A stretch of 64,000 bases of DNA from an uncultured archaeon (GTDB lineage Archaea; Thermoplasmatota; Penumbrarchaeia; JASLWR01): assembly GCA_964342815.1 (NCBI GenBank), contig CAYFHS010000005.1, positions 32,001-96,000 of the forward strand. Reading direction: 5' to 3'. Positions 5,279 through 31,297 of this stretch are shown piece after piece. Positions within the stretch are counted from its first letter, which is position 1; each line of letters starts with the position of its first letter. Position numbers and translations under genes: made by a program. Under the pieces are notes generated by a model. The model was not told the DNA's origin and ran no database searches. It saw nothing but the letters and a program-made list of their open reading frames with translations.

Positions 5279-5740
5279 TGTGATTACCTTTTCAAAATTA
5301 TTTCTTGATTTACAATTAATATATGAATTGATAGTTATTATGATAATTAAATATATGTCCTTTATTTCCTCCTCTTTGGTCGCCATCGCTCCCTTGCCCC
5401 GTTGCACAATATGTATTCCTGGGGATGCATAAGGTCTGTCGATATGCAAATTATATGTTCAGCAATGTTTCCTGTTATAAACACTCTGCGGGACGGACTT
5501 TGAATTAGTAAGGGGGGGTGGATTTTGAGCTATTCTCTTTTGAGCACATATTTTACCATGACAATGTAATATTGGAAAGGGCAAAGATGACACCCTTTTT
5601 TTCGTCAGCAATCTTAGACCTTTAATTAATTTGTTTGTACAAATAAAAATTATCTAAGGATAACGTATTCTGATCTACAGTCCTGAGATAAGCAACAAGG
5701 GGTTAGAAATAAATACCTTCCAAGTAATATCATACATACC

Positions 5741-8700
5741 ATGAAACGCCCAATAAAATACCTTCATAATCTTCATTTTCATTTCTCAATTTTCTGCATT
5801 ATATCAATTATTTTTCTATCCATCTTAATGCCGACTATGGAAGGCGAGCCGCCATTCCTTACATTATCCGACAAACATTCTCCTGGTACTTCAGTGAGGG
5901 ATCCCGTCACCCAATACGGTTATTTCGATTATAATTCCATGGTGGATATGCTTAATGGGTTCGAGACGGATTACCCCGATCTCGTGGACCTGTCCACAGC
6001 ACAGGATGTCTACTCGATTCCCGATTGCGTGGATGGTTACAAAACATATATGCTGAGGATATCTAACGAAACTAGGGTTTCCTCTTCGACTCCGGAGGTT
6101 CTCTTTCTCGGTGGTATTCATGGTGACGAGAAGATATCCGTTTCAGCTGCCATGTACCTGGCCAAATTCCTGCTGGAGAACTATCATAATGATGAATATT
6201 TGCGCTATTTGGTGGATAACCGTGAGATCTATATCATGCCTTGTCTCAATCCCTATGGCCTGGAGAACGGGCAGCGTCTGGACGGGGACGGAGAAGACGT
6301 GAACCGGGATTTCTCCTTTGATCAACCCGGACTCGCATTCACAAGTGTTGGTGCCCTGGCAGTCCACGAACTTATGCGCGATCACCTTTTCATCTCCGCG
6401 GTAAACTGGCACTCAGGAACAGAAGCAATTGGGTACGCGTGGGGGTGTGAGGCCCACGATACAGCAACCGACGAATCTCCGGATGATTCGGCCTTTTACA
6501 GTCAAGCCCAGGGCATGCGCAGCTATGCCGGGGATTACCGGGGCCTTTATCCCGTAGGCCGGAATAACCAGGTCATCTATTATGCGAGGGGTGCATTTTC
6601 CGATTATGCCTATGCAGCTTCGTGGGAGGCTGAGAACAGCGATGAGGATTGGCCGACCGGAGGATGCAGGGCCCTTGGTTATACCGTGGAGATATCCGAT
6701 TCGAATGAACCGGAACTTGATGAATTGGGTACCGATGAATTTATCTATTACCCTGGTGGAGACGGGGACGGATACATCCCGAAGAACATTCGCCTTGCAC
6801 TGTACCAGATCGATACGGCGTCCCCCTACGTGAGGGAGCCGGCAGACTACGAGCCTCCAGAATTCGCCGATCCCAACGGCCGCACAATTGTGAAATGGGT
6901 TGTGGGAGGGTGCGAGAAGGTCGACTCAGCTGAAATAATTGCATCTAGCGTTCCCGATGTAAAAAACAATACGCTTTGGCGTTCATCCCTCCTTCCCGCT
7001 AACAGCAGTTGGGAGAATTTAGCCGCAGGGGGAAATCCGTTAACCATGAAGGATTTCCAGCATGAACTGCCAATACCCATGGAGGCCGGAACCTATTATT
7101 ATCAGATAAAGGTGATTGTGGACGGCCATCTGACCGAGCAGGGGACTCCATCTCCGCTTGTATCTCCACAGAGCCTATATGCGAAATTGAGAACAATGGA
7201 TAACGAGATCATAAGAAACGGCGATCAGGTCCTGTACTGCAGCAGTACTTATGAAAGTAAGATATACAAGGTGGTGGTGAACAGTTCTGTCCTTCTTGAT
7301 CCGTTACCCCTTTCCCTTGGGGCCGGAGAATCGCTCGGGCTTGAATGGCGGACCAGCGTAACGGGCGGTGTGAACCGGAGTTACATCGCATGGGGTGAGC
7401 GGGATCCCCGCATTTCGCCGGATTATATGGTGAACGGCACATTGATAGACGAAGACCGCTACGGTATAGACATAATTTTGCCGGATCGATGGGGCAATTT
7501 CCTTTTCGTGGCGGTAGCAATTGATCAATTGGGGAAGGTTTTCTTTTCCCAGCTCGCCGCAGTCAGCACTTGGCCTTCAGTACAGATTACCTCTCTGCCC
7601 CATGAGACCCTGAGGGATAGTTACATCAATATCAGCTGGAGCGTACAGCATGCGGAAACGGTGGACTCATCATATGTTTTTGCCGCCTTTTCCGGGGATT
7701 TGTGGAACAATTCACTGGTAAGTGCCGGACCTTTTTCAGGGGATGAAACCAGTTTTACAGGGAGGATAAGAGCTCCGGACACAACGGGGCTGCTTCGCTT
7801 GGGAGTCAGAGCCCAGGTGGATTCGCAGCCTACACATTTCTATTCGAGTGTGGAAACCATCCGAATTCTCGAACACTTTTCCATAAGCGGTACCATCCTG
7901 GACTATACCGGTGGATTCACCCAGATTCTGGATGTCACAAACGTCACCGTATCCCAATCGGAACCGGGGGCCCCGTCTCTTGGACCGGATGGGCTTTCTT
8001 TGTATGCTTTCACAGTAACGGATTCATTGGGTAAAGACACCAACCTTTCCGGAAACCTGTCCTTTGATCCAATCTCATCGGTATGGGGAGCATCCGGAAT
8101 TAACGTTTCAAATCTCTCCGAGGGAAGCCATTATGTCCGGATGGGTTTCCGTTATGACAGTATTGACATATCGAGTCAGTTGTCTGGGAGTTCACTTTTT
8201 TACGTGGACCACACGATATCTGTTTCCAGTCTCAATTTTACATTCAGCAACAAGCTCACCTTAATAATTCAGAACCTGACGATCATTTCCTCGAAACCAA
8301 ACCGTTCTCCCCTGCCGGGGGAATCCTTGGTGAACAGCACCCTGGAACTGTTTTATGATAACAATGGGACCCCCTTGTTGAACGTAAGAGATATGATAAT
8401 TTTCGATCCGCTCTCCCGGGAATGGTCTTCCCTGCCAATGGACCTTGGTGGGGCTATGCCCGGCAAATACCGCTTTATTTTATCCTTGGAAACCGTATTC
8501 GCAAACATATCCGTTTCCCAAGAACGATTCACCTTCGTGATTCCGGAGCTTGTGGGTGTAACGACCCTGTCCATCACAAATTTATCCTATACCGAGGGTC
8601 CGATCCCAGTTCTGGAACTGGGCGGTATTGTTGTCAAATTACCAGATAGGTTGAATGGTGGACCTTATTTCGATTATTTTCGTAACACCCGGGTCGATTT

Positions 8701-9460
8701 CAAGATATCATCCACGGAGTACCACGAAACCAGAGCTTTCTATCCAGTTTTTTCGGGTGGTCCGGATGATTTTGATTTCAACCTGTCCGGTTTCCCCTCC
8801 GGAACCTACGGTCTCAGTGGATATTTTTCAACGAAGGTGGTATTTCCTCTGGGTGGTTCGCTGGTCCTGGGTGCAGACTACATCTATCCTTTACCGATAA
8901 TAGTGGAGCATCGATACTGGTTCGGAGATTCTGTGAATGTGACGGTAAGGCAGGACCGGTCTGCCCAAGTAATATCGAGCATGGACATGAGAGAGATCGA
9001 ATTGTTCTCGACATGGGATCATGATTTCGAAAAAAATATCATGCTGCGGGCCATGGTTATGAGGGGTACAATGGAGCTCTTCAATATCTCAGTTTTCTTC
9101 CATGAGCAATCCGGTTACTGGGAGATATTAAATGTCGATATTTCAACACTGGAGCCAGGCGATTATTATGTCCGGCTCGAAGGGAAGATTGATAACCTTA
9201 CTTTTACCAGCGGGAAGGTATTTGAGAACAGATCCAGGTTCAGGGTTGGTTCGGGCAGTACTGACGATATACGGACCGGTTCAGGAATCGCTGTATGGGT
9301 TTGTGTTGTCCTTGTTTTGCTAATACTACTTGCAGCAGCGGTCCTGTTCTTCATTCGGAACAGAAAACGGAGGAAACAAGAGAACTCTGAAGTACCGGTG
9401 ATCGAAAGGGATGACGAACAAATACGCGATTCGGAAATGTCTGACTTCAAGGAAAACTGA
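5741..9460 (+). CDS. Membrane-anchored extracellular M14 zinc carboxypeptidase with long C-terminal beta-rich stalk
   Basis: Signal-like N-terminus; GIHGDE (HxxE), NRDF, NWHSG and YTVEIS M14 motifs; C-terminal TM followed by RNRKRRK. Confidence 0.85.
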   Translation: MKRPIKYLHNLHFHFSIFCIISIIFLSILMPTMEGEPPFLTLSDKHSPGTSVRDPVTQYGYFDYNSMVDMLNGFETDYPDLVDLSTAQDVYSIPDCVDGYKTYMLRISNETRVSSSTPEVLFLGGIHGDEKISVSAAMYLAKFLLENYHNDEYLRYLVDNREIYIMPCLNPYGLENGQRLDGDGEDVNRDFSFDQPGLAFTSVGALAVHELMRDHLFISAVNWHSGTEAIGYAWGCEAHDTATDESPDDSAFYSQAQGMRSYAGDYRGLYPVGRNNQVIYYARGAFSDYAYAASWEAENSDEDWPTGGCRALGYTVEISDSNEPELDELGTDEFIYYPGGDGDGYIPKNIRLALYQIDTASPYVREPADYEPPEFADPNGRTIVKWVVGGCEKVDSAEIIASSVPDVKNNTLWRSSLLPANSSWENLAAGGNPLTMKDFQHELPIPMEAGTYYYQIKVIVDGHLTEQGTPSPLVSPQSLYAKLRTMDNEIIRNGDQVLYCSSTYESKIYKVVVNSSVLLDPLPLSLGAGESLGLEWRTSVTGGVNRSYIAWGERDPRISPDYMVNGTLIDEDRYGIDIILPDRWGNFLFVAVAIDQLGKVFFSQLAAVSTWPSVQITSLPHETLRDSYINISWSVQHAETVDSSYVFAAFSGDLWNNSLVSAGPFSGDETSFTGRIRAPDTTGLLRLGVRAQVDSQPTHFYSSVETIRILEHFSISGTILDYTGGFTQILDVTNVTVSQSEPGAPSLGPDGLSLYAFTVTDSLGKDTNLSGNLSFDPISSVWGASGINVSNLSEGSHYVRMGFRYDSIDISSQLSGSSLFYVDHTISVSSLNFTFSNKLTLIIQNLTIISSKPNRSPLPGESLVNSTLELFYDNNGTPLLNVRDMIIFDPLSREWSSLPMDLGGAMPGKYRFILSLETVFANISVSQERFTFVIPELVGVTTLSITNLSYTEGPIPVLELGGIVVKLPDRLNGGPYFDYFRNTRVDFKISSTEYHETRAFYPVFSGGPDDFDFNLSGFPSGTYGLSGYFSTKVVFPLGGSLVLGADYIYPLPIIVEHRYWFGDSVNVTVRQDRSAQVISSMDMREIELFSTWDHDFEKNIMLRAMVMRGTMELFNISVFFHEQSGYWEILNVDISTLEPGDYYVRLEGKIDNLTFTSGKVFENRSRFRVGSGSTDDIRTGSGIAVWVCVVLVLLILLAAAVLFFIRNRKRRKQENSEVPVIERDDEQIRDSEMSDFKEN

Positions 9461-9464
9461 AAAT

Positions 9465-10736
9465 TCACATCTTCGGGAGATAACACTCGAGGAAACTGAA
9501 AAGGGATTGAGTGATATCGCTTTTGGACTGCTCGTCAAGTTCCTCATAATCCTTTAATATCTGGAAGATGGGGGTGCCAAGGGTCTTGATAATAACAAGT
9601 GTATCCCGCATGGGATTCACATTGCTGAGCGCATGGCTCTCGTTTCCCATTACCTTGTAATCGTTTATGGCTTCCTTCATAAGCACAAGGTTCATCTGTC
9701 GGGTTCCAAGGTGAAGATATGCTTTCTTCTTGATCCGCACGACGGGGTGAAGGAATTCCCTCTGGTCAGTGAACCTGAAGGGACTTTGTTCCATGGAAAG
9801 CATTTTTGAGAGGTTGTCAAGCGTATGAAGAAAAGCTTCTTCATGACTGGTATAATTTCCTTTAAGGAACAATTCTTTGGAGTCGGTGACCTTGATCCTC
9901 CCCTCTTCATCGGGTTGGTACGGAATTTCCTGTGGGGGTGCGCCCCATTGGCCGTGTCCGTCGTCCGGATATGCTGATCCGGGCGGGGGCCCAAACTGTT
10001 GGCGGGGATCATAACCTGGCATCGGCTGCTGCCCATAAGGGAGTGCCCCCTGCGGATAAGGATTGTATCCCGTCATCCGGGGATCGTGAGCGGCTTCAGG
10101 CCGTTGCATCCTGGGGTCATAACCTTGTCCCGGTGGCTGGGCAAATTGGTTCTGTTGTTGTCCCTGCTGAGGTGCTGGTCCTGGCTGGAACCGCGGATCG
10201 TAAGCCTGCCCCATAGGATTCGAAGGAGGAGTTCCCTGCATCTGCCTCTGTGCAGTTTGACCATATGGGTCGTGGGCGGGAGGTGTTCCGAACTGTTGGG
10301 GATTCTCTTGAAACATTTCCTGCGGCGCGCAATCTCTAGCCGGGGCTTGGTCCAAGGGGGCATATTTCTGTTCGACGACAACGGGAGGTGGAGAATATTG
10401 TACCGCTTGGGGTGGGGTTTGTGCGGGAACCGGCTGAAGAGGTTGTTTTGCTGGGTCCATTTTAAATACGTAAAATACCAGATCGTTATAAATATTTGAA
10501 GAAAAGGAGGGATCATCCACCTCCACAAGCATTTCGGCGCCGAGTTTCAGTGAGTATGCCTTCGCTGCCCTTCTTATCCTATCGGTATCCCAGTTCTTGT
10601 CGAACTCGAAGGGAGGTTCAAGTTCGAACCAACCCTGCTGGGCAAGTATCTGAAAGAAGGAATCCTTCTCATGGCGGTTGACAAGCCTGAACTCGAATTT
10701 TTTATCGTCCTTCTTCTTTTTTCCAAACAGACCCAT
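9465..10736 (-). CDS. Hypothetical protein with central Q/P/G/Y-rich low-complexity region
   Basis: 425-aa ORF in the track (TTG 10742); ATG at 10736 preferred. Globular-looking ends flank a QP-rich linker with YDPR repeats. Confidence 0.75.
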   Translation of the reverse strand: MGLFGKKKKDDKKFEFRLVNRHEKDSFFQILAQQGWFELEPPFEFDKNWDTDRIRRAAKAYSLKLGAEMLVEVDDPSFSSNIYNDLVFYVFKMDPAKQPLQPVPAQTPPQAVQYSPPPVVVEQKYAPLDQAPARDCAPQEMFQENPQQFGTPPAHDPYGQTAQRQMQGTPPSNPMGQAYDPRFQPGPAPQQGQQQNQFAQPPGQGYDPRMQRPEAAHDPRMTGYNPYPQGALPYGQQPMPGYDPRQQFGPPPGSAYPDDGHGQWGAPPQEIPYQPDEEGRIKVTDSKELFLKGNYTSHEEAFLHTLDNLSKMLSMEQSPFRFTDQREFLHPVVRIKKKAYLHLGTRQMNLVLMKEAINDYKVMGNESHALSNVNPMRDTLVIIKTLGTPIFQILKDYEELDEQSKSDITQSLFSFLECYLPKM

Positions 10737-10957
10737 TTTCAATCACCGAATCATGAAATACCCGCAACAAATGCGGGTGTGACTGGGGAATAGCGCAAGT
10801 TGAGAAACGAAATCCTCCACAAGAGCACATGTTCAATTCAACTATCCCATTTATTCATCCCTGACGTGCGATTGTAACGATGAAATAGTATTTAACCTTT
10901 TTATTTAATATTTCCAAGGATTTCTTAAAGATTTCCCTGGAATCCTCCTCCTGTACC

Positions 10958-13564: not shown

Positions 13565-13926
13565 ACCATTACAATAATAATAAAGTTGAAAATGTCCATG
13601 GAATGAAATATTTTATATTTTTTTGTTCTTTTTTATCATTTTCAGCCAGTGATTCGGCTCAATTGTAATCGTCTTAACATATTTGAGATTTTTGCCATCC
13701 TTTTTCCCAATATATATAGATATATTAAAAATTTGTGTTAATGGGATATTTGGGGGGAAGGATACTATTATCAATCTGACTGGGCAATCCATGGTATCCC
13801 TGGGTAATTTTGTATATCATTCAAGCAAGAGTAATATATAAAAGGAGGAAATGATGTTAGGGATTATTCATTACACCGGTTTGTAAACGGAGCAGTATAA
13901 TTATAATGATACGGGAGGAAATCCTT

Positions 13927-15354
13927 ATGAAATTTGAACCGAAGGGTGTCAATCCGGCCCTGGTCACTCCTTTCCACACGGACGAGAGGATAAACGAGGA
14001 AGGGTTAAGAGCGCTCATCAGAAGCGTGATTCCACATGTGGACGGGATAGTACCCTGCGGTACCACAGGTGAGTTCGCATATCTATCAATAGCTGAGAGA
14101 AAACGGTTGTTCGAGATAGCATTGGACGAGGTGGGTGGAAGGGTTCCGGTTATCGCGGGAACGGGAGCATGTTCAACCCGACAAGCCGTGGAACTTACTA
14201 CCTTCGCTCATGATATCGGTGCTTCGGCTGCTCTGGTAGTTAGTCCGTATTATCTCACTCCATCCGATAAAGGATTCTTTCAACATTATAAAACGGTTGC
14301 AGACTCATGCCCGATACCGATATTGATGTACAATATACCACAGGTCACAGGTTCATTTATACCCAGCAGGGTCATTGAAGATATTTCCCATATACCAAAT
14401 ATCGTTGGCCTCAAGGATTCCTCCGGGGACCTGACGTATACCATGGAAATATTGGATCGTGTACAGGGCCGGATAAATGTAATGATCGGGCATGACGAGG
14501 TAGTCCTTCCAGCATTGGCAGGGGGCTGCAAGGGGATGATACTGGCAAGCGCCCAGGTCTTCCCGGATGTTTGGCAGCAAGTCTACAAAGCAGTTGGGAA
14601 CTCCGATCTTGTTACTGCGAGGAAACTGCAGATGAAAGTGCAAAAACTGGCAAGGATGTACTGTAGAATGGGAGGTTCGGTTCCCGTTAAGGCATCTCTG
14701 AGAATTATGGGAATACCTGTGGGCCGCGCAAGGAGACCGTTGATGGAAGGGGGTTCGATACTTCACGAAGATTTAGCCGAGATCAGGGTTGAACTTGAGA
14801 AATTGGGCAAGGTCCCCAGGGATCAAACGGATATTGGACTGTCCTCGCCTTCGATCGGGGATAGTTTGAGAGACTTTGGCCTCAGCGACGGGGATTTGGC
14901 CAGCAGGGAATATCCTTTTTCATGCGGATCCGTAGATGAGGGAGCTGAAAGTGTGGCGGTCCACATGGTTGCAGGAAACAAGGAGGGGAAACTAGGCCGA
15001 TTGTTCGCATATCAGCTTACATATCCAAAGCACGGTTATGAGGCATTGACCACGATACTCGAACCGAATTTGGCAGTACGTCCATCCACACTGATAATAC
15101 CCGGTGTGATACAGAAGAACCTGAGACAGGCGAATATGATATTCGGCCCGGTACAGTCCGCCTGCGCCCGAGCAATCGCGGACAGTGTCGAGGATGGGAT
15201 CATCCCGGCAAACAAGACGAAAAGCGTTGTGATGATCGCAAAGGTTTATTTGTCTCCAAATGCTTCCGCGAGAGAAATCATCTATCGGAACAGCTATTCT
15301 GTTTTCAAAACGGTACTGAAAGAAATTTTTTCCGAACGGGGGGGTGTTGATTAA
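13927..15354 (+). CDS. DapA/NAL-family class I aldolase fused to a C-terminal Fae-like (formaldehyde-activating enzyme) domain, copy A
   Basis: GTTGE, YNIP and LKDSSGD (Schiff-base Lys); C-terminal KHGYEAL..PNLAVRPSTL..RQANMIFGPVQ..DSVEDGIIP matches Fae. GGAGG at 13914-13918 supports a start at 13927 (track start 13906). Confidence 0.85.
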   Translation: MKFEPKGVNPALVTPFHTDERINEEGLRALIRSVIPHVDGIVPCGTTGEFAYLSIAERKRLFEIALDEVGGRVPVIAGTGACSTRQAVELTTFAHDIGASAALVVSPYYLTPSDKGFFQHYKTVADSCPIPILMYNIPQVTGSFIPSRVIEDISHIPNIVGLKDSSGDLTYTMEILDRVQGRINVMIGHDEVVLPALAGGCKGMILASAQVFPDVWQQVYKAVGNSDLVTARKLQMKVQKLARMYCRMGGSVPVKASLRIMGIPVGRARRPLMEGGSILHEDLAEIRVELEKLGKVPRDQTDIGLSSPSIGDSLRDFGLSDGDLASREYPFSCGSVDEGAESVAVHMVAGNKEGKLGRLFAYQLTYPKHGYEALTTILEPNLAVRPSTLIIPGVIQKNLRQANMIFGPVQSACARAIADSVEDGIIPANKTKSVVMIAKVYLSPNASAREIIYRNSYSVFKTVLKEIFSERGGVD

Positions 15355-16830
15355 ATGACGAGGACCACATGGTTGAAAGGCGTTTTTCCCGCGCTGGTCA
15401 CTCCATTCGACAAGAGGGAGAGAATCGATGAAGAGGCGTTCCGCTCCCTTATCAGACATCTATGGGCGGACGTGACCGGTTTCGTTCCCTGTGGGACCAC
15501 CGGGGAGTTCATGTACCTCTCCGAGAAGGAAAAAAGGAATTTGCTGGATATTGCCGTTGACGAGGTAGGTGGAAAAAAACCGGTGATCGCCGGAACCGGC
15601 TGTCCCAGCACAAGGGAGACTCTGGAATTGACCCGCTACGCAAAAGATATCGGAGCTACAGCTGCTCTGGTGGCATCCCCGTTCTACTTCAAGCCCAGCT
15701 TCAACGAACTTTACGAACACTTTGAGAGATTGAACGAACTGGACTTTCCGCTTATCATGTACAATATTCCTCAATGCACCGGTACTCATAAAAAATGGTG
15801 GACCGCCGAGGGGATCGCTATGCTGGACAATGTAATCGGAATAAAAGATTCCAGCGGTGATTTCCCCTTCCTCATGGCCTTGTTCGAGAAGGTACGGGAC
15901 AAGATATCTATAATGTGCGGACACGACGAGATAGGGATGCCGGCCCTGGCGGCCGGAGCCGACGGACTGATACTGGCCAGCGCGAACCTGATTCCGGATA
16001 TATGGCAGAAGATACGAGGATCGGTGTTGGAGGGGGATCTTGAGGCCGCCCGTTCACTTCAGGCGGGGATACAGAAATTGGTGAGGATAGTGGTCAGATG
16101 TGGAGCCAATCAGGCAGTAAAAGAAGGACTGGGAATGATGGATCTCCCCGTTGGCAGATCGAGGCTGCCTATTATGCCAGGAGGGGTTTTCAAGCGGGAG
16201 GACAGGGAAGAGCTGCGGATACAGTTGGAGAATCTTGGTAAAATTCCACAAAGAATGGTGGATTTCGACCTCGGTGACGGTGAACCGTTGCAAAGCCGGT
16301 ATCCACGGATTCCATCCACACCTGACACAATTGGCGATTTCACCATGAAGATCGGAGAGGGATTTGCTGGACCGCCCGTGTTCGAAGTAGCGCATATCGA
16401 CCTGCTTATAGGCTCAAAAGGTGGGCCGGTGACTTATGCCATCGAGGAGGTGATCAAAAGATATGAGGTGAACGAGAATGATCCTTCGAAGTTGATTATG
16501 GATCGTCCCCGCACTCTCCTTGTTCCCACTATCACGGTGAGGACGAAAAGGCAGGCGGGATATATCTATGGTGACGCATCCGAAGGTGTAGTTCTCGCTA
16601 TCGAAAAATCCATCGAGGACGGTGTGCTGCCTGATGGAATCCTAGATAGATTGGATATAATAGTCAATGTTTTCGTCCACCCGGCAGCCAGGAACCGGCA
16701 GAGAATAAAATTCAATAATTACAAAGCCATGCTCCATGCAGTGAAGAGAGCACTGGAAGAGCGGCCGACAATGGACGATATTATGTACGAAAAAGCGGCT
16801 GCAAGGCATCCGTTCAGGTACGAACCTTGA
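15355..16830 (+). CDS. DapA/NAL-family aldolase fused to a Fae-like domain, copy B
   Basis: GTTGE, YNIP and IKDSSGD; C-terminal IGEGFAG..EVAHIDLLIG..VFVHP..NY.A..HPF matches Fae. ATG immediately follows the TAA of copy A. Confidence 0.85.
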   Translation: MTRTTWLKGVFPALVTPFDKRERIDEEAFRSLIRHLWADVTGFVPCGTTGEFMYLSEKEKRNLLDIAVDEVGGKKPVIAGTGCPSTRETLELTRYAKDIGATAALVASPFYFKPSFNELYEHFERLNELDFPLIMYNIPQCTGTHKKWWTAEGIAMLDNVIGIKDSSGDFPFLMALFEKVRDKISIMCGHDEIGMPALAAGADGLILASANLIPDIWQKIRGSVLEGDLEAARSLQAGIQKLVRIVVRCGANQAVKEGLGMMDLPVGRSRLPIMPGGVFKREDREELRIQLENLGKIPQRMVDFDLGDGEPLQSRYPRIPSTPDTIGDFTMKIGEGFAGPPVFEVAHIDLLIGSKGGPVTYAIEEVIKRYEVNENDPSKLIMDRPRTLLVPTITVRTKRQAGYIYGDASEGVVLAIEKSIEDGVLPDGILDRLDIIVNVFVHPAARNRQRIKFNNYKAMLHAVKRALEERPTMDDIMYEKAAARHPFRYEP

Positions 16831-16890: not shown

Positions 16891-17973
16891 ATGAAGATGC
16901 CCGTGAAGATTTTATTTATTCAAAATCAATTGTGTGCCCGAGGATGGAAGGAGGCGAAGGTCTTGACGGAAGCGGGTGTTGATATAGACCTTCTGGAGCT
17001 AGGGAAACCCTCCGAATTTATGGACTACAGCATATTCAAGGATAGTCACAATATACCTGTGGGGGCCGATATTGGCAGTATGATAAGGAATAGGAAACGG
17101 ATAAAAACCGAGATTCGTGATTTTGCCGCCGGGCGTGATTACGATATTGCACACGTCCACAACGAACCGGACAACCTGGGCGTATGGACCAAAAAGAACC
17201 TTCCTATACCGGTTGTGCATGACATTCACGATCTGGTTAGCTTGAAACCAATAACATGGGCCCGGGGCCCGAAAAAATGGTTTGTAAGGAGTCTTGTGAA
17301 CCGATGGGAGGGCTACGTTTGCAGGAAGGCCGATGGAATAATGTCAACTTCGTCACTTATGATCGAGCATATTTGGAAACGATACGGTACAAAGAATATC
17401 GGTTACGTTGAGAATAAACCACTAAAGGAGAAATTCGAACTCGCGGAAAAGATCGACGACGGGAAGGTCCATTTTGTTTACCCGGGCGGCATATCTCTTG
17501 ATCCTGGCGGCAGCAGATACCTTTGGTCGATGTTCGAATCGATCTGCGCCATGGGATTCAATGTTCACCTTTATCCCCCTGTATTCGAACCAGGTCGGCA
17601 GGAGATCATCCGTAAAAGATGCTCTGGCGTTTCGGGACTTCATTATCATCTTCCTGTTGCCCAGAACAAGGTGATCCGAGAGATAAGCAAGTACCATTAC
17701 GGGCTTGTCCTGTTCAGCAGTTTCACTAAGAACATATTGATGGCTACCTCGAACCGGGTCTACGAATACCAGATCGCTGGTATACCGGTAATAACAAATG
17801 ATATTGGTCATATCGGAGATTATGTAAAGAAGAAAAAATGCGGCGAGGTCATAGGGGACCCGGGTGAGATAAAGAAATTAATAAGCGGTGGCCGCGAATA
17901 CAATCTGGATACAAACGACTGTTTCATGGATGCAAAACCTATTCTCGATCTTTATTCTAAGATAATAGCGTGA
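16891..17973 (+). CDS. Glycosyltransferase, GT-B fold (family 4-like)
   Basis: HVHNEPD, VVHDIHDL, FVYPGGI and NRVYEYQIAGIPVI motifs; GAGGTGA SD upstream. Confidence 0.8.
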   Translation: MKMPVKILFIQNQLCARGWKEAKVLTEAGVDIDLLELGKPSEFMDYSIFKDSHNIPVGADIGSMIRNRKRIKTEIRDFAAGRDYDIAHVHNEPDNLGVWTKKNLPIPVVHDIHDLVSLKPITWARGPKKWFVRSLVNRWEGYVCRKADGIMSTSSLMIEHIWKRYGTKNIGYVENKPLKEKFELAEKIDDGKVHFVYPGGISLDPGGSRYLWSMFESICAMGFNVHLYPPVFEPGRQEIIRKRCSGVSGLHYHLPVAQNKVIREISKYHYGLVLFSSFTKNILMATSNRVYEYQIAGIPVITNDIGHIGDYVKKKKCGEVIGDPGEIKKLISGGREYNLDTNDCFMDAKPILDLYSKIIA

Positions 17974-18032: not shown

Positions 18033-18878
18033 ATGTTCTTGATATTGATGCCGGAATCAACGAAAAAATCCTCCACAAACGAAAAGGGAAAAAATGTGGA
18101 GTTTCAGCACGTACAGTCTCGATGGAGCAGGGTGGCCCGAAGGGGAGTGCACCTTACGTCCTCAGCGTTGATCATTTATTTTTTCTTTCCTGAAATAGTA
18201 TTCGAGATCGGGGCATTCAAAATGCACCGCGCGCTTTTATTGGTACTATTATTTTTACTAATACCTTTCCAGATCGAGTTCTGGAGGTTGAAGATGGGGA
18301 AATCCTTCTTCATGCTTCGCGAACACGAGAAGAACTGTGTGGCGGCCTATATCTGGACTCTCTTGGGGGCCATGGGCCTCTGTCTTTTAACCGAGATCGG
18401 GTTGCCGGAATTCATTGCCATTCCCATTATGCTATGTGCATCTCTTGGAGACCCTTTCCTCGGTGAGACGCGAGTAATGGCAGTTTTCAGAAGGAGACAT
18501 TATTATTCACTGGCGGTTCTTCTTTGCGGAAGCCTTTTTTTCATATGGCTGGGAAATCCCTTCCTGGCTTTGATGGCCGGTTTTCTCACGGTGGTGGCGG
18601 AATCCCTGAATATCAAACTGAACTGGGGTCTCAGAAAGGAAATGCTGCACGATCTCGAGAACCGTAACTTCATTCTTCGAAAGATCAAGGCATTGAACCT
18701 TTATGATCGGTTATTCTACACCAATGATAATCTGTTGATGCAGTTGATACCTCTGTATTTCCTGGTAATACTTTATCTTGCTCTGCCCCAGTTTTTCCCA
18801 CCGGATTCCATGTTCTTCGGCGATTGGTGGGCGGACATAATATCAAAATACCAGTTCGATACGTTTTTTAGCATCTGA
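18033..18878 (+). CDS. Integral membrane protein, CTP-dependent polyprenol/dolichol/diacylglycerol kinase-like
   Basis: Multiple TM segments; RRGVH (RK..H-like), GDP and AES motifs. Confidence 0.5.
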   Translation: MFLILMPESTKKSSTNEKGKNVEFQHVQSRWSRVARRGVHLTSSALIIYFFFPEIVFEIGAFKMHRALLLVLLFLLIPFQIEFWRLKMGKSFFMLREHEKNCVAAYIWTLLGAMGLCLLTEIGLPEFIAIPIMLCASLGDPFLGETRVMAVFRRRHYYSLAVLLCGSLFFIWLGNPFLALMAGFLTVVAESLNIKLNWGLRKEMLHDLENRNFILRKIKALNLYDRLFYTNDNLLMQLIPLYFLVILYLALPQFFPPDSMFFGDWWADIISKYQFDTFFSI

Positions 18879-19062: not shown

Positions 19063-20241
19063 ATGAAAGAACCCGTTATAATATCCGCCGTTAGAACAGC
19101 TCTGGGAAAGTTCAATGGAACCCTCAAGAACATGCCTGCGGTAAAACTTGGCAGCCTGGTAATCGGAGAGTCCGTAAAACGTGCTGGAATTTCGAAAAAT
19201 GATGTGGATGAAGTGATTATGGGAATGGTGCTGCAGGCAGGAGCCGGGCAGAACCCGGCACGCCAGGCAGCTCTAGGGGCCGGTATCCCGGAGAACAAAG
19301 GCTGCATGACCATCAACAAGGTGTGCGGTTCAGGTCTGAAATCCATTATGATCGCGGCCAATTCCATAAAGGCAGGAGAGCATGAGATCATCGTGGCAGG
19401 GGGGATGGAGAATATGGCTAAAGCGCCCTATTATCTGTACAAGGCAAGGGACGGTTACAGAATGGGGGATGGGAAGATCGTCGATGGAATGGTTTACGAC
19501 GGATTGTGGGAAGTTTACAACGATTTCCATATGGGTATTACAGGAGAGCGCATCGCTGAACATTACGATCTCACAAGGGAAGAGGTGGATGCTTTTGCCG
19601 TAAGAAGTCACCGTTTGGCAGCAGCGGCGGCGGAGGGAGGAAAGTTCGCCGAAGAGATAGTTCCCATCGAGATCCCACAGAGGAGAGGAGACCCGGTTAT
19701 CTTTGATAGTGACGAGGGGATACGGGCAGATTCCTCGGTGGAAAAGCTGGCTAGGTTAAGAGCGGTTTTTAAAAACGACGGTCTCGTAACAGCCGGGAAC
19801 GCCTCCCAGATATCGGATGGAGCTTCGGCCGTAGTGGTCACCAGCCGAGAAAAGGCCGTGGAGCTGGGAATTCCGATCCTGGCAAAGATCGTGGATTATC
19901 ACACCTCCGGCTGCGCGCCTGAAGACGTGATGGAGGCGCCAGTACCCACCATGAGGGAGATAATGGAAAGGAATAATCTAAGCATTGGGGACTTGGACCT
20001 CATCGAACACAACGAAGCCTTTGCATCGGCATCATTGGCCATACAGAAGGAGTTCGACATTCCCGAGGACAAGTTCAACGTACACGGCGGCGGCGTTGCT
20101 CTGGGTCACCCCATAGGAGCCAGTGGTGCAAGGGTGCTCACCACCCTGATATATGCCATGAAGGACCGAGGTGCCAAGCTGGGGCTTGCAACACTTTGCC
20201 TTGGCGGCGGTAATGCAGTGGCAATGATAATTGAAATGTGA
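19063..20241 (+). CDS. thlA: Acetyl-CoA acetyltransferase (canonical thiolase)
   Basis: NKVCGSG, NEAFA, GHPIGASG and LCLGGG catalytic motifs all present. Confidence 0.95.
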   Translation: MKEPVIISAVRTALGKFNGTLKNMPAVKLGSLVIGESVKRAGISKNDVDEVIMGMVLQAGAGQNPARQAALGAGIPENKGCMTINKVCGSGLKSIMIAANSIKAGEHEIIVAGGMENMAKAPYYLYKARDGYRMGDGKIVDGMVYDGLWEVYNDFHMGITGERIAEHYDLTREEVDAFAVRSHRLAAAAAEGGKFAEEIVPIEIPQRRGDPVIFDSDEGIRADSSVEKLARLRAVFKNDGLVTAGNASQISDGASAVVVTSREKAVELGIPILAKIVDYHTSGCAPEDVMEAPVPTMREIMERNNLSIGDLDLIEHNEAFASASLAIQKEFDIPEDKFNVHGGGVALGHPIGASGARVLTTLIYAMKDRGAKLGLATLCLGGGNAVAMIIEM

Positions 20242-20267
20242 TTTATTCGTAAAACGGAGGGAAAAAT

Positions 20268-21122
20268 ATGGCTATACAGAAGATTGGAGTGATAGGTGCC
20301 GGGACCATGGGTCACGGGATCGCGCTGGTATCCGCAAAAAGCGGTTACGACGTCATAATGAGAGATATCGAAGAAAGGTTTATTGAAAAGGGACTTGCCA
20401 ATGTCGAGAAATTCCTCAAGAGAAGCGTTGCTAAGGGTAGGATGAGCGAAGAAGAGATGACACTCGTCCTGGCAAGAATAAGTACAACGGTGCATATGGA
20501 AGACCTGCAGGACTGCGACCTCATTATTGAGGCGATAATCGAGAATGCCGATCTCAAGAAAAAGGTTTTTTCCGAACTGGATAGTTACTGTCCCCCGGAA
20601 ACCATATTTGCATCGAATACATCCACGATCCCCATCACGGAAATGGCATCGGCCACGGAACGCCCGGACAGGTTCATCGGAATGCATTTTATGAATCCCG
20701 TCCCCTTGATGAAGCTCATCGAGGTCATCAATGGTCTCAGAACCTCGAGAGAGACCACCGAAGTTATAATGTCGCTTGCCGGGGACCTCGGAAAGATTCC
20801 CATAGAGGTAAATGATTATCCGGGATTCGTTGCCAACAGGATACTTCTGCCCATGATCAATGAGGCTGCGTACTGTCTAATGGAAGGTGTTGCAACTAGA
20901 GAGGCAATCGACGGGGTGATGAAACTGGGGATGAACCATCCCATGGGCCCTTTGGCCCTGGCAGATCTTATCGGCCTTGACGTATGCCTTTTCATCATGG
21001 AAGTTCTATACGATGGCTTTTCCGATTCGAAGTACAGACCCTGCCCTCTGCTCAAGAAAATGGTCAATGCCGGTTTCCTGGGCAGAAAGTCCGGTCAGGG
21101 ATTTTACGACTACAGCAAGTGA
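20268..21122 (+). CDS. hbd: 3-hydroxybutyryl-CoA dehydrogenase
   Basis: GAGTMG, EAIIE, SNTS, HFMNPVP, PGFVANR and PMGP motifs. Confidence 0.95.
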
Positions 21123-21146
21123 TCTCACCACATGGAGGTTTATCTC

Positions 21147-21908
21147 ATGATAGACGTTTCAAGAGAAGGAAATACCATAATATTGACAATAAACAACCCC
21201 CCAATGAACGTTCTCAACAGTGAATTGTTGAACGAACTTGGCGGGGTTCTGGATAAGATCAAGAACGACGATTCGTTGGCAGTCATAATCACCGGCGAGG
21301 GAAGAGCATTCGTGGCAGGCGCGGACATTAAGGAAATGATGAATATGGATCCGGAGGAGGCGAGGCTGTTCGCCAGCATAGGTCAATCGGTCTTCAACAA
21401 GATCGAGCAACTGCCCAAACCGGTAATCGCTGCTGTTAACGGATTTGCCCTGGGTGGTGGTACCGAATTGGCCATGAGCTGTGACATTATACTTGCTTCC
21501 GATAAAGCGAAGTTCGGGCAGCCCGAGGTCGCTCTCGCAGTGATACCCGGATTTGGTGGGACGCAAAGACTATCCCGCATAGTAGGAAGGAACATCGCCA
21601 AGGAATTGATATATTCAGGCAGTATAATCGGTGCGGACGAGGCCTATCGCATCGGTCTTGCCAACAGGCTGCTGCCCCCCGAAGAACTCATGGAGGCGGC
21701 AAAGAAACTTGCGGATACCATCTCGAAAAAGGGTCCCGCCGCGGTGAGGTTGGCAAAAGAGTCCATAAACGGCGGTCTGGATATGACCCTGGGTGATGGG
21801 CTCGAGTACGAGGCCGTCAAGTTCTCGGAGTGTTTCCGAACATTTGACCAGAAGGAAGGAATGGATGCCTTCGTAAATAAACGAAAACCCGATTTCCGAG
21901 GTGAATGA
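21147..21908 (+). CDS. crt: Enoyl-CoA hydratase (crotonase)
   Basis: FVAGADI, GFALGGGTEL and FGQPE..PGFGGTQRL. The track starts at 21132, but GGAGGT upstream of ATG 21147 favours the latter. Confidence 0.93.
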   Translation: MIDVSREGNTIILTINNPPMNVLNSELLNELGGVLDKIKNDDSLAVIITGEGRAFVAGADIKEMMNMDPEEARLFASIGQSVFNKIEQLPKPVIAAVNGFALGGGTELAMSCDIILASDKAKFGQPEVALAVIPGFGGTQRLSRIVGRNIAKELIYSGSIIGADEAYRIGLANRLLPPEELMEAAKKLADTISKKGPAAVRLAKESINGGLDMTLGDGLEYEAVKFSECFRTFDQKEGMDAFVNKRKPDFRGE

Positions 21909-21971
21909 GGAGCATTAGCTCCAAGATTATTCTCTCCCCTGCAGCATAAGTAAAAGTGGAAGGGTGGAACA

Positions 21972-23105
21972 ATGGATGTTTTACTCAACGACGAGCAGAG
22001 AAAGATAAGAGAGACCGTTAAGCGATTTGCCGATGAAGAGGTAATTCCGGTTGCTTCCGAGTTGGACCGTGAGCACAGATGGCCCGGGGAACTGCTGGCA
22101 AAGATGGGTGAAATGGGGCTAATGGGTATGCCTGTTCCGCAGGAGTACGGTGGTGCGGGCGCTGATTATCTCTCCTATATGATCGCCGTGGAGGAACTTG
22201 CCAGAGCTTGGGGTTCATTGAGTCTTATCATGACGGTCCATACTTCCGTGGGAACCCTGCCCATATATGATTTTGGAACACCTGATCAGAAGGAAAGGCT
22301 GCTGAAACCCCTTGCCCAGGGTAAGATGATCGGTGCTTTCGCCCTTACCGAACCGGAGGCAGGCTCTGACGTGTCGGGTGTCAAAACCACCGCTGTAAGA
22401 GATGGCGCTGATTATATTCTCAACGGATCGAAGATTTTCATAACTAACGGCAGCAGAGCAGGAACTATCATAGTTCTTGCTGTAACGGATAAGGATGCCG
22501 GAACGAAGGGATACAGTACCTTCATTGTCGAAAAGGGGATGGACGGATTCACTCTGGGGGTGGATGAAGACAAGTTGGGATTGCACTCGTCCGTAACTTC
22601 GGAGCTGGTTTTCAACGATGTAAAAATACCGAGGAAAAACTTATTGGGAGCCGAAGGAGATGGATTGAGAATTTCCCTTTCGGCACTTGACGGAGGGAGG
22701 ATGGGTGTTGCTTCCCAGGCAGTTGGGATCGCAAGAGCGGCTCTGGAGGAATCCATAAGATATTCAGGTGAACGGCAGCAGTTCGGCCACCCAATAAACC
22801 GTTTCCAGGGAATATCCTTCATGCTTGCAGAAATGGCCACCGAGGTTGATGCCGCGAGAGGTCTTGTCTACCGCGGTGCCTTTATGAAAGAGCGCGGTAT
22901 GCGTATCTCGAAAGAGGCCGCCATGGCAAAGCTGTATGCTTCCGGAGTGGCGGTCAGAACAACTACAAAGGCCATCCAGGTTCACGGTGGATACGGATAT
23001 ATTGCCGATTATCCGGTTGAGAGATTTTTCCGGGATGCGAAAGGCACCGAGATATACGAGGGTACTTCCGAAATACAGCGCCTTGTAATATCGAGAAACC
23101 TATGA
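21972..23105 (+). CDS. bcd: Short-chain acyl-CoA (butyryl-CoA) dehydrogenase
   Basis: FALTEPEAGSD, GSKIFITNG, QVHGGYGY and IYEGTSEIQR. Confidence 0.92.
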   Translation: MDVLLNDEQRKIRETVKRFADEEVIPVASELDREHRWPGELLAKMGEMGLMGMPVPQEYGGAGADYLSYMIAVEELARAWGSLSLIMTVHTSVGTLPIYDFGTPDQKERLLKPLAQGKMIGAFALTEPEAGSDVSGVKTTAVRDGADYILNGSKIFITNGSRAGTIIVLAVTDKDAGTKGYSTFIVEKGMDGFTLGVDEDKLGLHSSVTSELVFNDVKIPRKNLLGAEGDGLRISLSALDGGRMGVASQAVGIARAALEESIRYSGERQQFGHPINRFQGISFMLAEMATEVDAARGLVYRGAFMKERGMRISKEAAMAKLYASGVAVRTTTKAIQVHGGYGYIADYPVERFFRDAKGTEIYEGTSEIQRLVISRNL

Positions 23106-23277
23106 TGGATTTTCAATCTTAAAAAGACCTTTAATACGAGTTAGGACAATTCATCTTCAGAATATAGAACATAAACACCGAAATCATTAACTTAAATGAG
23201 ATATTACGTATTCTCGAGATAATTAATTTATGTAATAATTTATTGCTAAAAATATAAAAAACCGAGGAGGTGAAAGA

Positions 23278-24537
23278 GTGACAAGAAGAGTGTGTGTGAT
23301 AGGGATTGGACACACAGATTTCAATTCTATGACACCGGATATAGAATGGAAGGAACTAATGTACGAGGCTTGCCAGAAAGCTTATGTTGACGCCGGAATA
23401 GACCCCAGGAAAGACGTTGACAGTTTCATTACCTGTGCCGAGGATTATCTGGAAGGTTTCAGTATATTTGATGAATTCGTGCCCGATCAGATAGGCGCCG
23501 TGCTCCGCCCTTGCGGTACGGTATGCGGTGATGGGATCTACGGATTAGGAAATGCATATATGCAGATAAAGACCGGTCTAATGGACGTTGTGGCAGTGGA
23601 AGCTCATAGTAAGGTATCTGACCTATTAACTTTCGGTGAGATCGTGCTACATGCATTTGATCCCGTATTCGAAAGACCGGTGGCTGGTCCCGTGGAAAGG
23701 CCAAATTTTGCAGGTTCTCCCACATATACGAAGGAAAGCCCCAAACCCCTTGTGGGAAGTAGTGACGAAAAGGAGCGGCTCCATCCGTACTTTTTAGCGG
23801 GGTTGGAGATGCAGCATTACCTTAAAAAGACCAATACCACCGAGGAACAATGCGCTGAGGTGGTTGTAAAGAACAAGTTTAACGCTTTTAATAATCCTTA
23901 TGCGGATTATGAGGCAAAGATCTCAGTGGAGGATGTCATGGATTCAGAGTATCTCTTCAATCCACTGAAGAGTTTGGAGATCAGTCCCAACGTTGACGGA
24001 GCGATTGCCTTTGTCCTTGCCGATGAGAAGACGGCAAAGAGCCTAGGAGTAGATCCGATATACATGTCCGGATTCGGTTGGTCATCTGAAACACCGTGGC
24101 TTTCGACAAGAGGATTGGATGCAGGTTATGCGACCAATGCGGCGAAGATGGCCTATAAGATGGCAGGTATAAAAAAGCCCAGAAAGGAAATCGATATCGC
24201 AGAGGTGGATGATCGGTTCTCCTACAAGGAGTTCCAGCATCTCGAGGCCCTGAAACTGGCGAGACCCGGCGAACCGGCTCATCTGCTGGAAGAGGGCGAA
24301 CTGGGTCAGGGAGGTTCGCTCCCCACGAATATGTCGGGAGGATCGCTGGGAGTTGGCAACTGCCTGGAGGCCACGGGTCTGCAGAAGTCTCTTGAGATCG
24401 TGACCCAGCTGCGAGGATTCGCTGGGAAGAGACAGGTGGCCGATGCGAAGCTTGGAATCGCCCAATCTTGGCGAGGTATTCCATCGGGAAGCGGTGCCGT
24501 GGCGATCTTTTCAAGCGATAATGAGGTGATGAAATGA
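23278..24537 (+). CDS. Non-canonical thiolase-superfamily (SCP-x/Ltp-like) protein, subunit A
   Basis: Thiolase-fold signatures (VVKNK.NA..NP.A, SPNVDGA.A, GGSLGVGN) but no canonical CxSG or GHP. GGAGGTGA SD at 23266-23273 precedes the GTG. Confidence 0.85.
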   Translation: MTRRVCVIGIGHTDFNSMTPDIEWKELMYEACQKAYVDAGIDPRKDVDSFITCAEDYLEGFSIFDEFVPDQIGAVLRPCGTVCGDGIYGLGNAYMQIKTGLMDVVAVEAHSKVSDLLTFGEIVLHAFDPVFERPVAGPVERPNFAGSPTYTKESPKPLVGSSDEKERLHPYFLAGLEMQHYLKKTNTTEEQCAEVVVKNKFNAFNNPYADYEAKISVEDVMDSEYLFNPLKSLEISPNVDGAIAFVLADEKTAKSLGVDPIYMSGFGWSSETPWLSTRGLDAGYATNAAKMAYKMAGIKKPRKEIDIAEVDDRFSYKEFQHLEALKLARPGEPAHLLEEGELGQGGSLPTNMSGGSLGVGNCLEATGLQKSLEIVTQLRGFAGKRQVADAKLGIAQSWRGIPSGSGAVAIFSSDNEVMK

Positions 24538-25694
24538 AAGATGTAGCAGTGATCGGAGGCGGAATGACCATGTTTCGCAGAAGATTAAAGGAAACCGGCA
24601 AGGAGCTGTCCTATCTGGCTGCGAAGATGGCTATGGAAGAGGCCGGTATAGAGAAGAGCGACATTGATATGGTTGTAATGGGTAGCGCTCCGGATGCGTT
24701 CGACGGCATACACCAGAAGGGTGAGAACCTGTTGGACGGTGCCGCAGGGGCGGGAAAACCATATGTAAGAGTTTTTAACGGAGGCGGGACATGTGTTTTC
24801 GCACCCATCGCTGGGTGGTGGCACGTAGCCTCCGGCGTAGCGGATGTAGCACTTGTTGTCGCCGAGGAGAAGATGGGCTCCACCTATCCCCATCCTCAGA
24901 CCGCCTTCCGGCATATCTGGGACCCCATACTGGACCGTCCACTCAATCCCAACCTCGTTTGGTTGTTCGCCATGGAGATGAACCGGTATATGACAAGATA
25001 TAATATCAAAAAAGAGGACATAGCGAGGGTGGCTGTAAAGAACAAGAGGAACGCAGTTGGTCATCCCTGCGCACAGCTGGCTGATCCGAACATAACCGTT
25101 CAAGACGTTCTGGATTCGGAAATGATGGCATGGCCGGTCCAGCGCTTGGATATCAGCCCTCCCAGCGACGGGGCAGCGGCATTGGTTTTCTGTTCCAAGG
25201 AAAAAGCGAGGGAATTCTCGGATGATCCAAGCTGGATCTCGGGAGTGGGATGGAATATCGACAGCACCATGTGGACGAACAGGGATCTCGTCTTCCCACA
25301 GTACGTGGCCAATGCGGCAAAGATGGCCTACAAGATGGCAAGGATAACAAATCCGCCCAAGCAGATCGACTTTGCTGAACCGTACGACCCCTTCGATTAC
25401 AAGGAGCTGCATCACATGGAGGGATTGATGCTGTGCAAGAAGGGAGAAGCTCCCACACTTACAAGAGAGGGAGTGACACAGAGGGATGGGGATCTACCGA
25501 TATGTCCTTCCGGAGGTCTGTTGGGTGTTGGTAATCCCATAGCAGCGACCATGGGACAGAAGGTGGCCGAACTCCACTGGCAGCTAACAGGAAAAGCAGG
25601 AAAGAGGCAGATACCAGGCGACCCGAGAGTGGGTGTTGCCCAGGCATGGGGAGACATCATGCAGATGGGTACTGTGATCGTTATGGAGAAGTGA
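24534..25694 (+). CDS. Non-canonical thiolase-superfamily (SCP-x/Ltp-like) protein, subunit B
   Basis: VAVKNKRNA..HP.AQL, SPPSDGAAA and GGLLGVGNP; ATGA overlap with subunit A. Confidence 0.85.
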   Translation: MKDVAVIGGGMTMFRRRLKETGKELSYLAAKMAMEEAGIEKSDIDMVVMGSAPDAFDGIHQKGENLLDGAAGAGKPYVRVFNGGGTCVFAPIAGWWHVASGVADVALVVAEEKMGSTYPHPQTAFRHIWDPILDRPLNPNLVWLFAMEMNRYMTRYNIKKEDIARVAVKNKRNAVGHPCAQLADPNITVQDVLDSEMMAWPVQRLDISPPSDGAAALVFCSKEKAREFSDDPSWISGVGWNIDSTMWTNRDLVFPQYVANAAKMAYKMARITNPPKQIDFAEPYDPFDYKELHHMEGLMLCKKGEAPTLTREGVTQRDGDLPICPSGGLLGVGNPIAATMGQKVAELHWQLTGKAGKRQIPGDPRVGVAQAWGDIMQMGTVIVMEK

Positions 25695-25704
25695 GGTGAT
25701 GAAA

Positions 25705-31112: not shown

Positions 31113-31297
31113 AATTTCACCAATACTTTTCTTATTAATTTCAAATACTATAGGATAAATTATGCTTTTATAAATACTTTCGGTTCTGTCTTTTATGGTT
31201 CTCTGTGTATGATAATCGATTATTAGATTTATTACACGGTCTATCCCGGCCATAACAATTTTCATTATCGAAAACGCCATTCTCTCTGATAGGTAAA

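Follow-up and report, generated by a model that had tools for sequence, protein, structure and literature searches.

A pair of adjoining genes, here called A and B, was analysed in a stretch of 64,000 nucleotides (the window) from the genome of a marine archaeon (genome G000, completeness 88.9%). Both genes are on the forward strand, and each encodes an aldolase domain fused to a C-terminal domain of the Fae family. Gene A (13927-15354, 475 aa) encodes what is referred to below as the 'loop face' of the Fae pocket, and gene B (15355-16830, 491 aa) its 'histidine/tail face'. In the list of open reading frames (ORFs), A appeared with alternative starts at 13906 and 13927. The ATG at 13927, 3' of a GGGAGGA sequence, is the likely start, since a database protein of 475 aa (P0122, 100% identical) agrees with it. 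The TAA stop codon of A directly abuts the ATG start codon of B (...GTTGATTAAATGACG), and a G-rich, Shine-Dalgarno-like run (GGGGGGTG) is located just 5' of the latter. Through this TAA-ATG junction, translation of B is predicted to be coupled to that of A.

Pfam searches placed a class I aldolase domain of the DHDPS/NAL family (NAL, N-acetylneuraminate lyase) at 13939-14748 in A (PF00701, 5e-72) and at 15373-16182 in B (1e-67), with predicted Schiff-base lysines Lys170 (codon 14413-14415, numbering of P0001) and Lys164 (codon 15844-15846), respectively. The Fae-like domains were found at 14932-15324 in A (PF08714, 1.6e-32), where the match covers profile positions 6-136 of 159 and is thus C-terminally shortened, and at 16351-16815 in B (2.8e-30, profile positions 1-158). 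Scores of A and B were above the cut-offs of both PF08714 (113 and 106 bits; cut-off 27) and TIGR03126 (123.1 and 122.4 bits; cut-off 118.05). An earlier, preliminary description of this DNA had reported two abutting TAA-ATG genes, each joining a DHDPS/NAL aldolase to a Fae domain. The ORFs, their junction and the Pfam matches bore this out, including the Fae match of both C-terminal domains, which had been left to profile searches. Over their full length, A and B are 40% identical, indicating that they originated by duplication of an already fused gene.

The two Fae domains have lost different parts of the motif set of this family. Where B reads EVAHIDLLIG, the aligned position in A reads ESVAVHMVAG, with Ala351 (14956-14958) at the position of the catalytic histidine and His353 at that of the aspartate. 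A keeps KHGYEALTTILEPNLAVRP...LRQANMIFGPVQ and terminates without the HPF tail. B keeps its histidine (His347, codon 16393-16395), VFVHP and ARHPFRYEP, has a 5-residue deletion at the PNL loop and has lost GPxQ. The complete set of PNL loop, GPxQ and HPF tail is consequently found in neither single chain. Alignments of relatives (121 A-type and 120 B-type sequences) showed the same division throughout. In the A clade, AxQLT, the EPNL loop, LRQA and GPxQ form invariant columns (48 A-type sequences) and the chain ends before the tail. The B clade retains GEG, the AHIDL histidine and aspartate (each in 120 of 120 sequences), VHP and a terminal ARHPF, with an invariant tail R484-H485-P486. At the catalytic histidine position, A-type sequences carry Gln (43), His (38), Arg (11) or Ser (7; n = 121), which suggests that the histidine face of A is relaxed and not uniformly destroyed. 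The complementary loss of Fae motifs noted in the preliminary description was therefore accurate and clade-wide and, judged by its persistence over this many sequences, the pattern is not due to chance.

The Fae domains of A and B were modelled as a two-chain complex, using alignments of 48 sequences for each chain. The A:B model showed ipSAE scores of 0.84, 0.84 and 0.83; the highest score among three controls was 0.00. Separate runs had no less than 83% of the contacts in common, and the pLDDT of the partner was at least 83. Of 80 solved complexes, 58 attained the mark used for such models, as did 2 of 110 mismatched pairs. The modelled interface involves residues 359-394, 406 and 414-418 of A (loop face) and residues 330-337, H347, D349, 436-443 and 461-485 of B (histidine/tail face). 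In this model, the motifs kept by each paralogue face one another. The preliminary description had put forward homomeric and mixed oligomers for structure prediction; the model obtained here is that of the mixed A:B Fae-domain pair.

An undivided form of the same architecture occurs in Asgard archaea, in which a single-gene aldolase-Fae fusion (P0251; Fae score 194 bits) carries all Fae motifs in one chain. P0251 was one of only 312 matches in a scan of 1.84 billion cluster representatives with the Fae domain of B. It is 44% identical to B and 43% identical to A. Proteins of this type ('C-type') are largely confined to Asgard archaea, share 84-98% identity among more than 120 clusters, are annotated as DapA and are presumably homo-oligomeric. 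In a quick tree of aldolase domains, whose root on the DapA of G000 is a single long outgroup branch, P0251 grouped with B (support 94/90) and A branched below. Because the undivided P0251 has every motif and groups with B, the loop deletion in B is best interpreted as a derived loss in a lineage with an A partner. The split site thus looks derived, by complementary degeneration after duplication. Since each of the two proteins fuses an aldolase to half a Fae pocket, A and B most likely constitute one enzyme. Complementary conservation, gene order, the A:B model and the undivided Asgard relative are four agreeing lines by which a predicted A/B heteromer with composite Fae sites, as already proposed in the preliminary description, is well supported.

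A pattern scan of GTDB species genomes identified 415 relatives, and the counts of gene order given here refer to the best 79 loci. In 70 of these 79 species loci, A was followed by B on one strand, while the other nine had one gene only or an interrupted arrangement. Hosts included Thermoplasmata, Methanomassiliicoccales, many Anaerolineae and other Chloroflexota, and one Myxococcales metagenome-assembled genome. A and B form two separate, widespread clades; the family includes hundreds of metagenomic clusters and spans both archaea and bacteria. Fae was detected in 7 of 301 sampled Thermoplasmatota genomes, six of which carry the A-then-B pair, and the two Fae domains of the pair were the only ones found in G000. 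Flanking genes are not conserved past close relatives, which indicates that A-B itself is the mobile unit. The aldolase-Fae pair, which the preliminary description had treated by itself, is thus a member of an extensive family that is conserved across domains of life and in which a third component, protein X or its relative U (see below), recurs. A full-text literature search found no paper on an aldolase-Fae fusion.

The aldolase parts of both clades (121 A-type and 120 B-type aligned sequences) keep GTTGE, YNIPQ, KDSSG and GHDE. Within each clade (48 A-type and 48 B-type sequences), the Schiff-base lysine (K170 in A, K164 in B), the tyrosine (Y142 and Y136, respectively) and GTTGE are invariant, in agreement with the intact GTTGE, YNIP and KDSSG motifs reported earlier for both proteins. 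Each clade has separate invariant motifs in its specificity loop. In the B clade, YNIPQC is followed by HxKWWTAEG, with K164, H145, W148, W149 and T150 invariant (48 B-type sequences). Both barrels are therefore proposed to be competent Schiff-base (class I, pyruvate/2-oxoacid) aldolases.

Genes for the tetrahydromethanopterin (H4MPT) pathway were searched in five pair-carrying Thermoplasmatota, including G000. Neither a beta-ribofuranosylaminobenzene 5'-phosphate (beta-RFAP) synthase scoring above the cut-off nor Mch was found in these five genomes, and FolD was present in all of them. This combination makes H4MPT an unlikely carrier here, and tetrahydrofolate is probably the likelier pterin for the A/B Fae pocket, as far as gene presence can tell. 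The preliminary description had started from H4MPT-dependent Fae and had suggested a search of the genome for H4MPT biosynthesis and mch. That search came out negative for both markers in G000, and the premise is unlikely to hold for this host. If true, use of folate would be new for a Fae-type site.

Protein X (421 aa) is encoded in G000 on contig C12 (40031-41296; L107:8032-9297, reverse strand), unlinked to the pair, and showed no match in Pfam or NCBIfam. Its Asgard counterpart (428 aa, 61% identical to X of G000) is encoded 20 bp upstream of the single-gene aldolase-Fae fusion, and a distant relative is found upstream of A in some Anaerolineae. The structural model of X consists of a helical domain and a TIM barrel (pLDDT 87). 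Structure searches gave no specific solved relative of this fold: the best Foldseek match had an E-value of 2.6e-4 and a TM-score of 0.33, and the best VIA-align match (Z 12.6) was tied with many generic TIM barrels. X is also the first gene of a conserved operon in at least 23 other Thermoplasmatota, where it is followed by genes for homoserine dehydrogenase (Hom), aldehyde:ferredoxin oxidoreductase (AOR) and a class I/II aminotransferase; this operon may represent an undescribed aspartate-semialdehyde/homoserine route. A 425-aa ORF in the window (9465-10742) likewise gave no Pfam match and shows no relationship to X.

In 21 of the 79 loci, a protein of approximately 310 aa, designated U, is encoded upstream of A (e.g., L016:4904-5854, L019:6588-7529 and L021:6615-7535); it does not occur in G000. 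Versions of U from Chloroflexota and Thermoplasmata share 65% identity; the protein is without a Pfam match, and its ESM features are U32-like. A profile-profile comparison of U with X aligned 220 columns (E 3.5e-4, probability 37%), with FK(V/I)S, N, H and K.E motifs in common. All six sampled pair carriers have X or its shorter relative U, although in one of them (G170) only a contig-end fragment of X is present. Within family f1, three pair genomes also carry X, and G083 lacks both. X is thus associated with a homoserine/aspartate-semialdehyde module in some organisms and with an aldolase-Fae module in others. These associations point to the homoserine/4-hydroxy-2-oxobutanoate node as the putative shared metabolite and provide the best functional lead.

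Two further genes were observed beside the pair. A cysteine-rich DUF6485 mini-protein of approximately 65 aa is encoded between A and B in 18 of the 79 loci (e.g., L016:7700-7894 and L017:7729-7929). The G000 copy, which is 50% identical, is located on contig C42 (14260-14535, reverse strand), where it adjoins a diphthine-synthase-like gene. In eight loci (L058:9158-10423 and seven further Anaerolineales), the pair is closely followed by an oppositely oriented gene for S-adenosylhomocysteine hydrolase; its position may reflect either lineage synteny or a link to methionine/one-carbon (C1) metabolism.

The interpretation favoured here, with moderate confidence, is that A and B are two subunits of one hetero-oligomeric aldolase-Fae enzyme that moves C1 between a folate-type carrier and a 2-oxoacid. 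The loop face of A (AxQLT, KHG..EPNL loop, LRQA and GPxQ) would close over the histidine face of B (GEG, AHIDL His347/Asp349, VHP and ARHPF), yielding one full Fae-type pocket for each A:B pair. This pocket would bind a reduced pterin, most likely tetrahydrofolate, and interconvert its methylene adduct and formaldehyde, which the adjoining aldolase site would add to, or release from, a 2-oxoacid. The likeliest reaction would be pyruvate + C1 <-> 4-hydroxy-2-oxobutanoate, the keto acid of homoserine, and the unlinked TIM-barrel protein X would probably work with A/B. Interconversion of 4-hydroxy-2-oxobutanoate with pyruvate and formaldehyde, which the preliminary description had offered as an example, is a plausible chemistry for A/B, with indirect support from the X operon containing homoserine dehydrogenase. 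The wider proposal, in which A, B and X together form a natural folate-C1 + pyruvate <-> 4-hydroxy-2-oxobutanoate/homoserine route, with the first tetrahydrofolate-dependent Fae-type enzyme and a site split by complementary loss, is put forward tentatively.

Several alternatives were considered for the proteins themselves and for the role of the pair. According to public databases, A and B would be 4-hydroxy-tetrahydrodipicolinate synthases (DapA). Consistent with this annotation, A scores 227 bits with TIGR00674 (DapA; cut-off 206.15) and the closest solved structures to A/B are those of DHDPS, with YagE (3n2x/2v8z) also among the PDB matches. B, however, remains below the same cut-off (194.5 bits). 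In place of DapA Arg138 (E. coli numbering), which follows YN(V/I)P and binds the carboxylate of aspartate semialdehyde, A has Val (YNIPQVTG) and B has Cys (YNIPQCTG). Reference DapA motifs do contain this arginine, both in the stand-alone DapA of G000 (YNIKGRTG) and in that of M. jannaschii (YNVPSRT). In addition, A and B have GHDE, which resembles the GxDE motif of NAL, in place of GDD. The canonical dapA of G000 is located on contig C4 (19321-20208) and is followed by asd, so that the additional dapA for which the preliminary description had proposed to look is indeed present. Given the lack of this arginine in both proteins and the presence of a true dapA-asd pair at another site in the genome, neither A nor B is, on these residues and genes, a DapA, and the DapA labels on the aldolase-Fae family are misannotations; the database assignment is scarcely credible. 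Scores of A and B were likewise below the NCBIfam cut-offs for NanA and HpaI (N-acetylneuraminate lyase NF003164/TIGR00683: 173.6 and 171.8 against a cut-off of 281; 150 against 382). Alternatively, the Fae-like domains might be catalytically dead and serve oligomerization or regulation, with A and B being two aldolases of differing specificity that assemble as homo- or hetero-oligomers. That either Fae domain is incomplete by itself and that both aldolase sites look intact would fit this explanation. It does not account for a histidine kept in all 120 B-type sequences, an invariant PNL loop and GPxQ in A and an HPF tail in B, across bacteria and archaea, nor for the meeting of exactly these residues at the modelled A:B interface, and is considered improbable.

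If A/B act on 4-hydroxy-2-oxobutanoate, they might do so in either direction. In an anabolic role, pyruvate and methylene-tetrahydrofolate would be converted to 4-hydroxy-2-oxobutanoate and, by an aminotransferase, to homoserine, thereby replacing Hom and feeding ThrC/methionine synthesis; X would act at a later step. In G000, Asd is present, a ThrC-family gene exceeds the cut-off, and Hom and ThrB are missing. X is linked with Hom in relatives and, in Asgard archaea, with the aldolase-Fae gene, and pair and X co-occur in the three f1 genomes while G083 is devoid of both. However, the gap is not specific to pair carriers: Hom is missing in five of the six, but also in most pair-less relatives, and a true ThrB was found in no genome of the class by presence profiling. 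Moreover, G229 carries both the pair and Hom, ThrC above the cut-off is absent from the pair carriers G146 and G010, so that a threonine-directed role would not be general, and no aminotransferase is linked to the pair. An anabolic role is for these reasons regarded as rather doubtful. In the catabolic direction, 4-hydroxy-2-oxobutanoate derived from homoserine or from the product of X would be cleaved to pyruvate and formaldehyde, which would be trapped on folate, as an alternative to the Hom-AOR-aminotransferase exit. The host looks like a peptide- and fatty-acid-degrading heterotroph, with large peptidases and a beta-oxidation cluster in the window, and in several lineages the pair repeatedly has M28/M20 peptidase genes as neighbours, although these may reflect lineage synteny. 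Archaeal Fae-Hps is likewise reported to trap formaldehyde released by a lyase (Goenrich 2005). On the other hand, the pair is linked to neither a transporter gene nor a gene for homoserine production, and the direction of the reaction is unreadable from sequence, which leaves catabolism as a possible but unlikely role. A replacement of PanB, in which the pair would hydroxymethylate alpha-ketoisovalerate to ketopantoate, would involve chemistry formally equal to that of PanB, and PanB was found in none of the six pair-carrying Thermoplasmatota. Its absence is uninformative, since 225 of the 301 sampled genomes lack it. Furthermore, an HPS-RraA fusion (NF005442, E 1e-182 to 1e-199) occurs in all six pair carriers, including G000 (contig C79:1048-2331). 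Across the families of the 301 Thermoplasmatota, HPS-RraA and PanB are almost mutually exclusive, with PanB only in f14, f28 and f31 and HPS-RraA only in most others. Being complementary to PanB and present in every pair carrier, HPS-RraA is a better-fitting candidate for the PanB gap. Replacement of PanB by the pair was therefore rejected for this lineage on gene presence across the 301 genomes, and we regard it as very improbable.

For the favoured interpretation of one folate-linked heteromeric enzyme, several observations point in the opposite direction. Fae is known to act with H4MPT only and, to our knowledge, no folate-dependent Fae has been described. The catalytic histidine is retained in about a third of the A-type sequences (38 of 121), and the two aldolase sites both look intact, yet differ, and the interpretation offers no reason for having two. 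As the Fae pentamer has already been solved (1Y5Y/1Y60), the result of the complex model may reflect memorization of that structure, and its score covers A:B only, not the relative merit of A:A or B:B. At the level of genomes, pair carriers cannot be told apart from relatives by the presence profiles of PanB, Hom and ThrB, and G146 and G010 combine the pair with a lack of ThrC above the cut-off.

The known system closest to the C-terminal domains is Fae of Methylorubrum extorquens (1Y5Y/1Y60), to which those of A and B align with E-values of 1e-19 and 4e-15 (1Y5Y). Jointly, A and B hold its AHIDL histidine, PNL loop, GPxQ, VF(I/V)H strand and HPF tail. Unlike in Fae, the full motif set is contained in no single chain, the domain is placed behind an aldolase and the host lacks H4MPT markers. 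Moreover, known Fae is a homopentamer with sites between subunits, whereas A and B likely pair with each other, as in the two-chain model. Archaeal Fae-Hps (NF009833; 5,6,7,8-tetrahydromethanopterin hydro-lyase/3-hexulose-6-phosphate synthase) resembles the pair in the fusion of Fae to a lyase that makes or uses formaldehyde and in the hand-over between two active sites. Its Fae domain is, however, N-terminal and complete and is joined to Hps, which has the orotidine 5'-monophosphate decarboxylase fold, whereas that of A/B is C-terminal, split over two paralogues and joined to a DHDPS/NAL class I aldolase. Accordingly, A and B scored only 101 and 92 bits with NF009833 (Fae part only; cut-off 274), and Pfam detected no Hps domain in either.

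The Asgard C-type has the same two-domain architecture and adjoins X, but consists of one gene with an undivided Fae motif set. With DapA, NanA and YagE/YjhH, A and B share the TIM barrel, GTTGE, the YNIP tyrosine and the Schiff-base lysine of KDSSG; they differ from DapA by the lack of Arg138 and from NanA by their low model scores. YagE and YjhH can condense pyruvate with formaldehyde. PanB (PF02548) transfers C1 at the formaldehyde level from methylene-tetrahydrofolate to C3 of a 2-oxoacid, the reaction type proposed for A/B, but is metal-dependent and of unrelated fold, and its role in these organisms is apparently covered by HPS-RraA.

Both domains of A and B belong to textbook families, while their combination does not, and databases label the proteins as either DapA or Fae. 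Correction of this misannotation is relevant for metagenome surveys, in which it can distort calls of the lysine pathway and of methylotrophy. The pair would be a clean example from nature of gene duplicates that share out an active site lying between subunits, while the undivided form survives in Asgard archaea. It is also a candidate folate-linked formaldehyde enzyme for organisms without H4MPT, and a candidate natural enzyme for joining C1 to pyruvate, a conversion that synthetic methylotrophy now builds from promiscuous aldolases. If true, the A/B/X route would mirror, in nature, the engineered 'homoserine cycle'.

Upstream of gene A, a conserved element with a TATA-like box (TAATATATAAAA, 13833-13844) was found on the forward strand at 13825-13863. 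This 39-nt block is identical in the closest relative (L006), in which the flanking intergenic DNA is divergent and includes an indel of approximately 130 bp. The element, approximately 85 nt 5' of gene A, is likely an archaeal promoter. The indel follows position 13890: between the promoter-like block and gene A, L006 has approximately 130 bp of extra sequence with a GC-rich, hairpin-like stretch that the window lacks. A mini-ORF (13851-13886) behind a strong AAGGAGG lies in the promoter-like block; as its frame is not kept in L006, it was not regarded as a leader peptide.

Downstream of the pair, two genes follow on the forward strand, one for a GT4 glycosyltransferase (16891-17973) and one for a membrane protein of 281 aa that is dolichol-kinase-like (18033-18878). 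Both are syntenic only in the closest relatives and, as glycosylation and dolichol-kinase-like genes, were rejected as partners of the pair and excluded from its system. In BLAST, the 281-aa ORF was weakly similar to U (E 0.03), a match that was dismissed. These genes are followed, at 19063-26244, by a beta-oxidation-type cluster encoding a thiolase, 3-hydroxyacyl-CoA dehydrogenase, enoyl-CoA hydratase, acyl-CoA dehydrogenase, two thiolase-like proteins and a DUF35/ChsH2-type OB-fold protein. The window further contains genes for three giant surface or signalling proteins: an FG-GAP repeat protein (1574-5449, 1291 aa), an M14 carboxypeptidase (5741-9460, 1239 aa) and a PKD-repeat protein with a terminal Ser/Thr kinase domain (26796-31334, 1512 aa).

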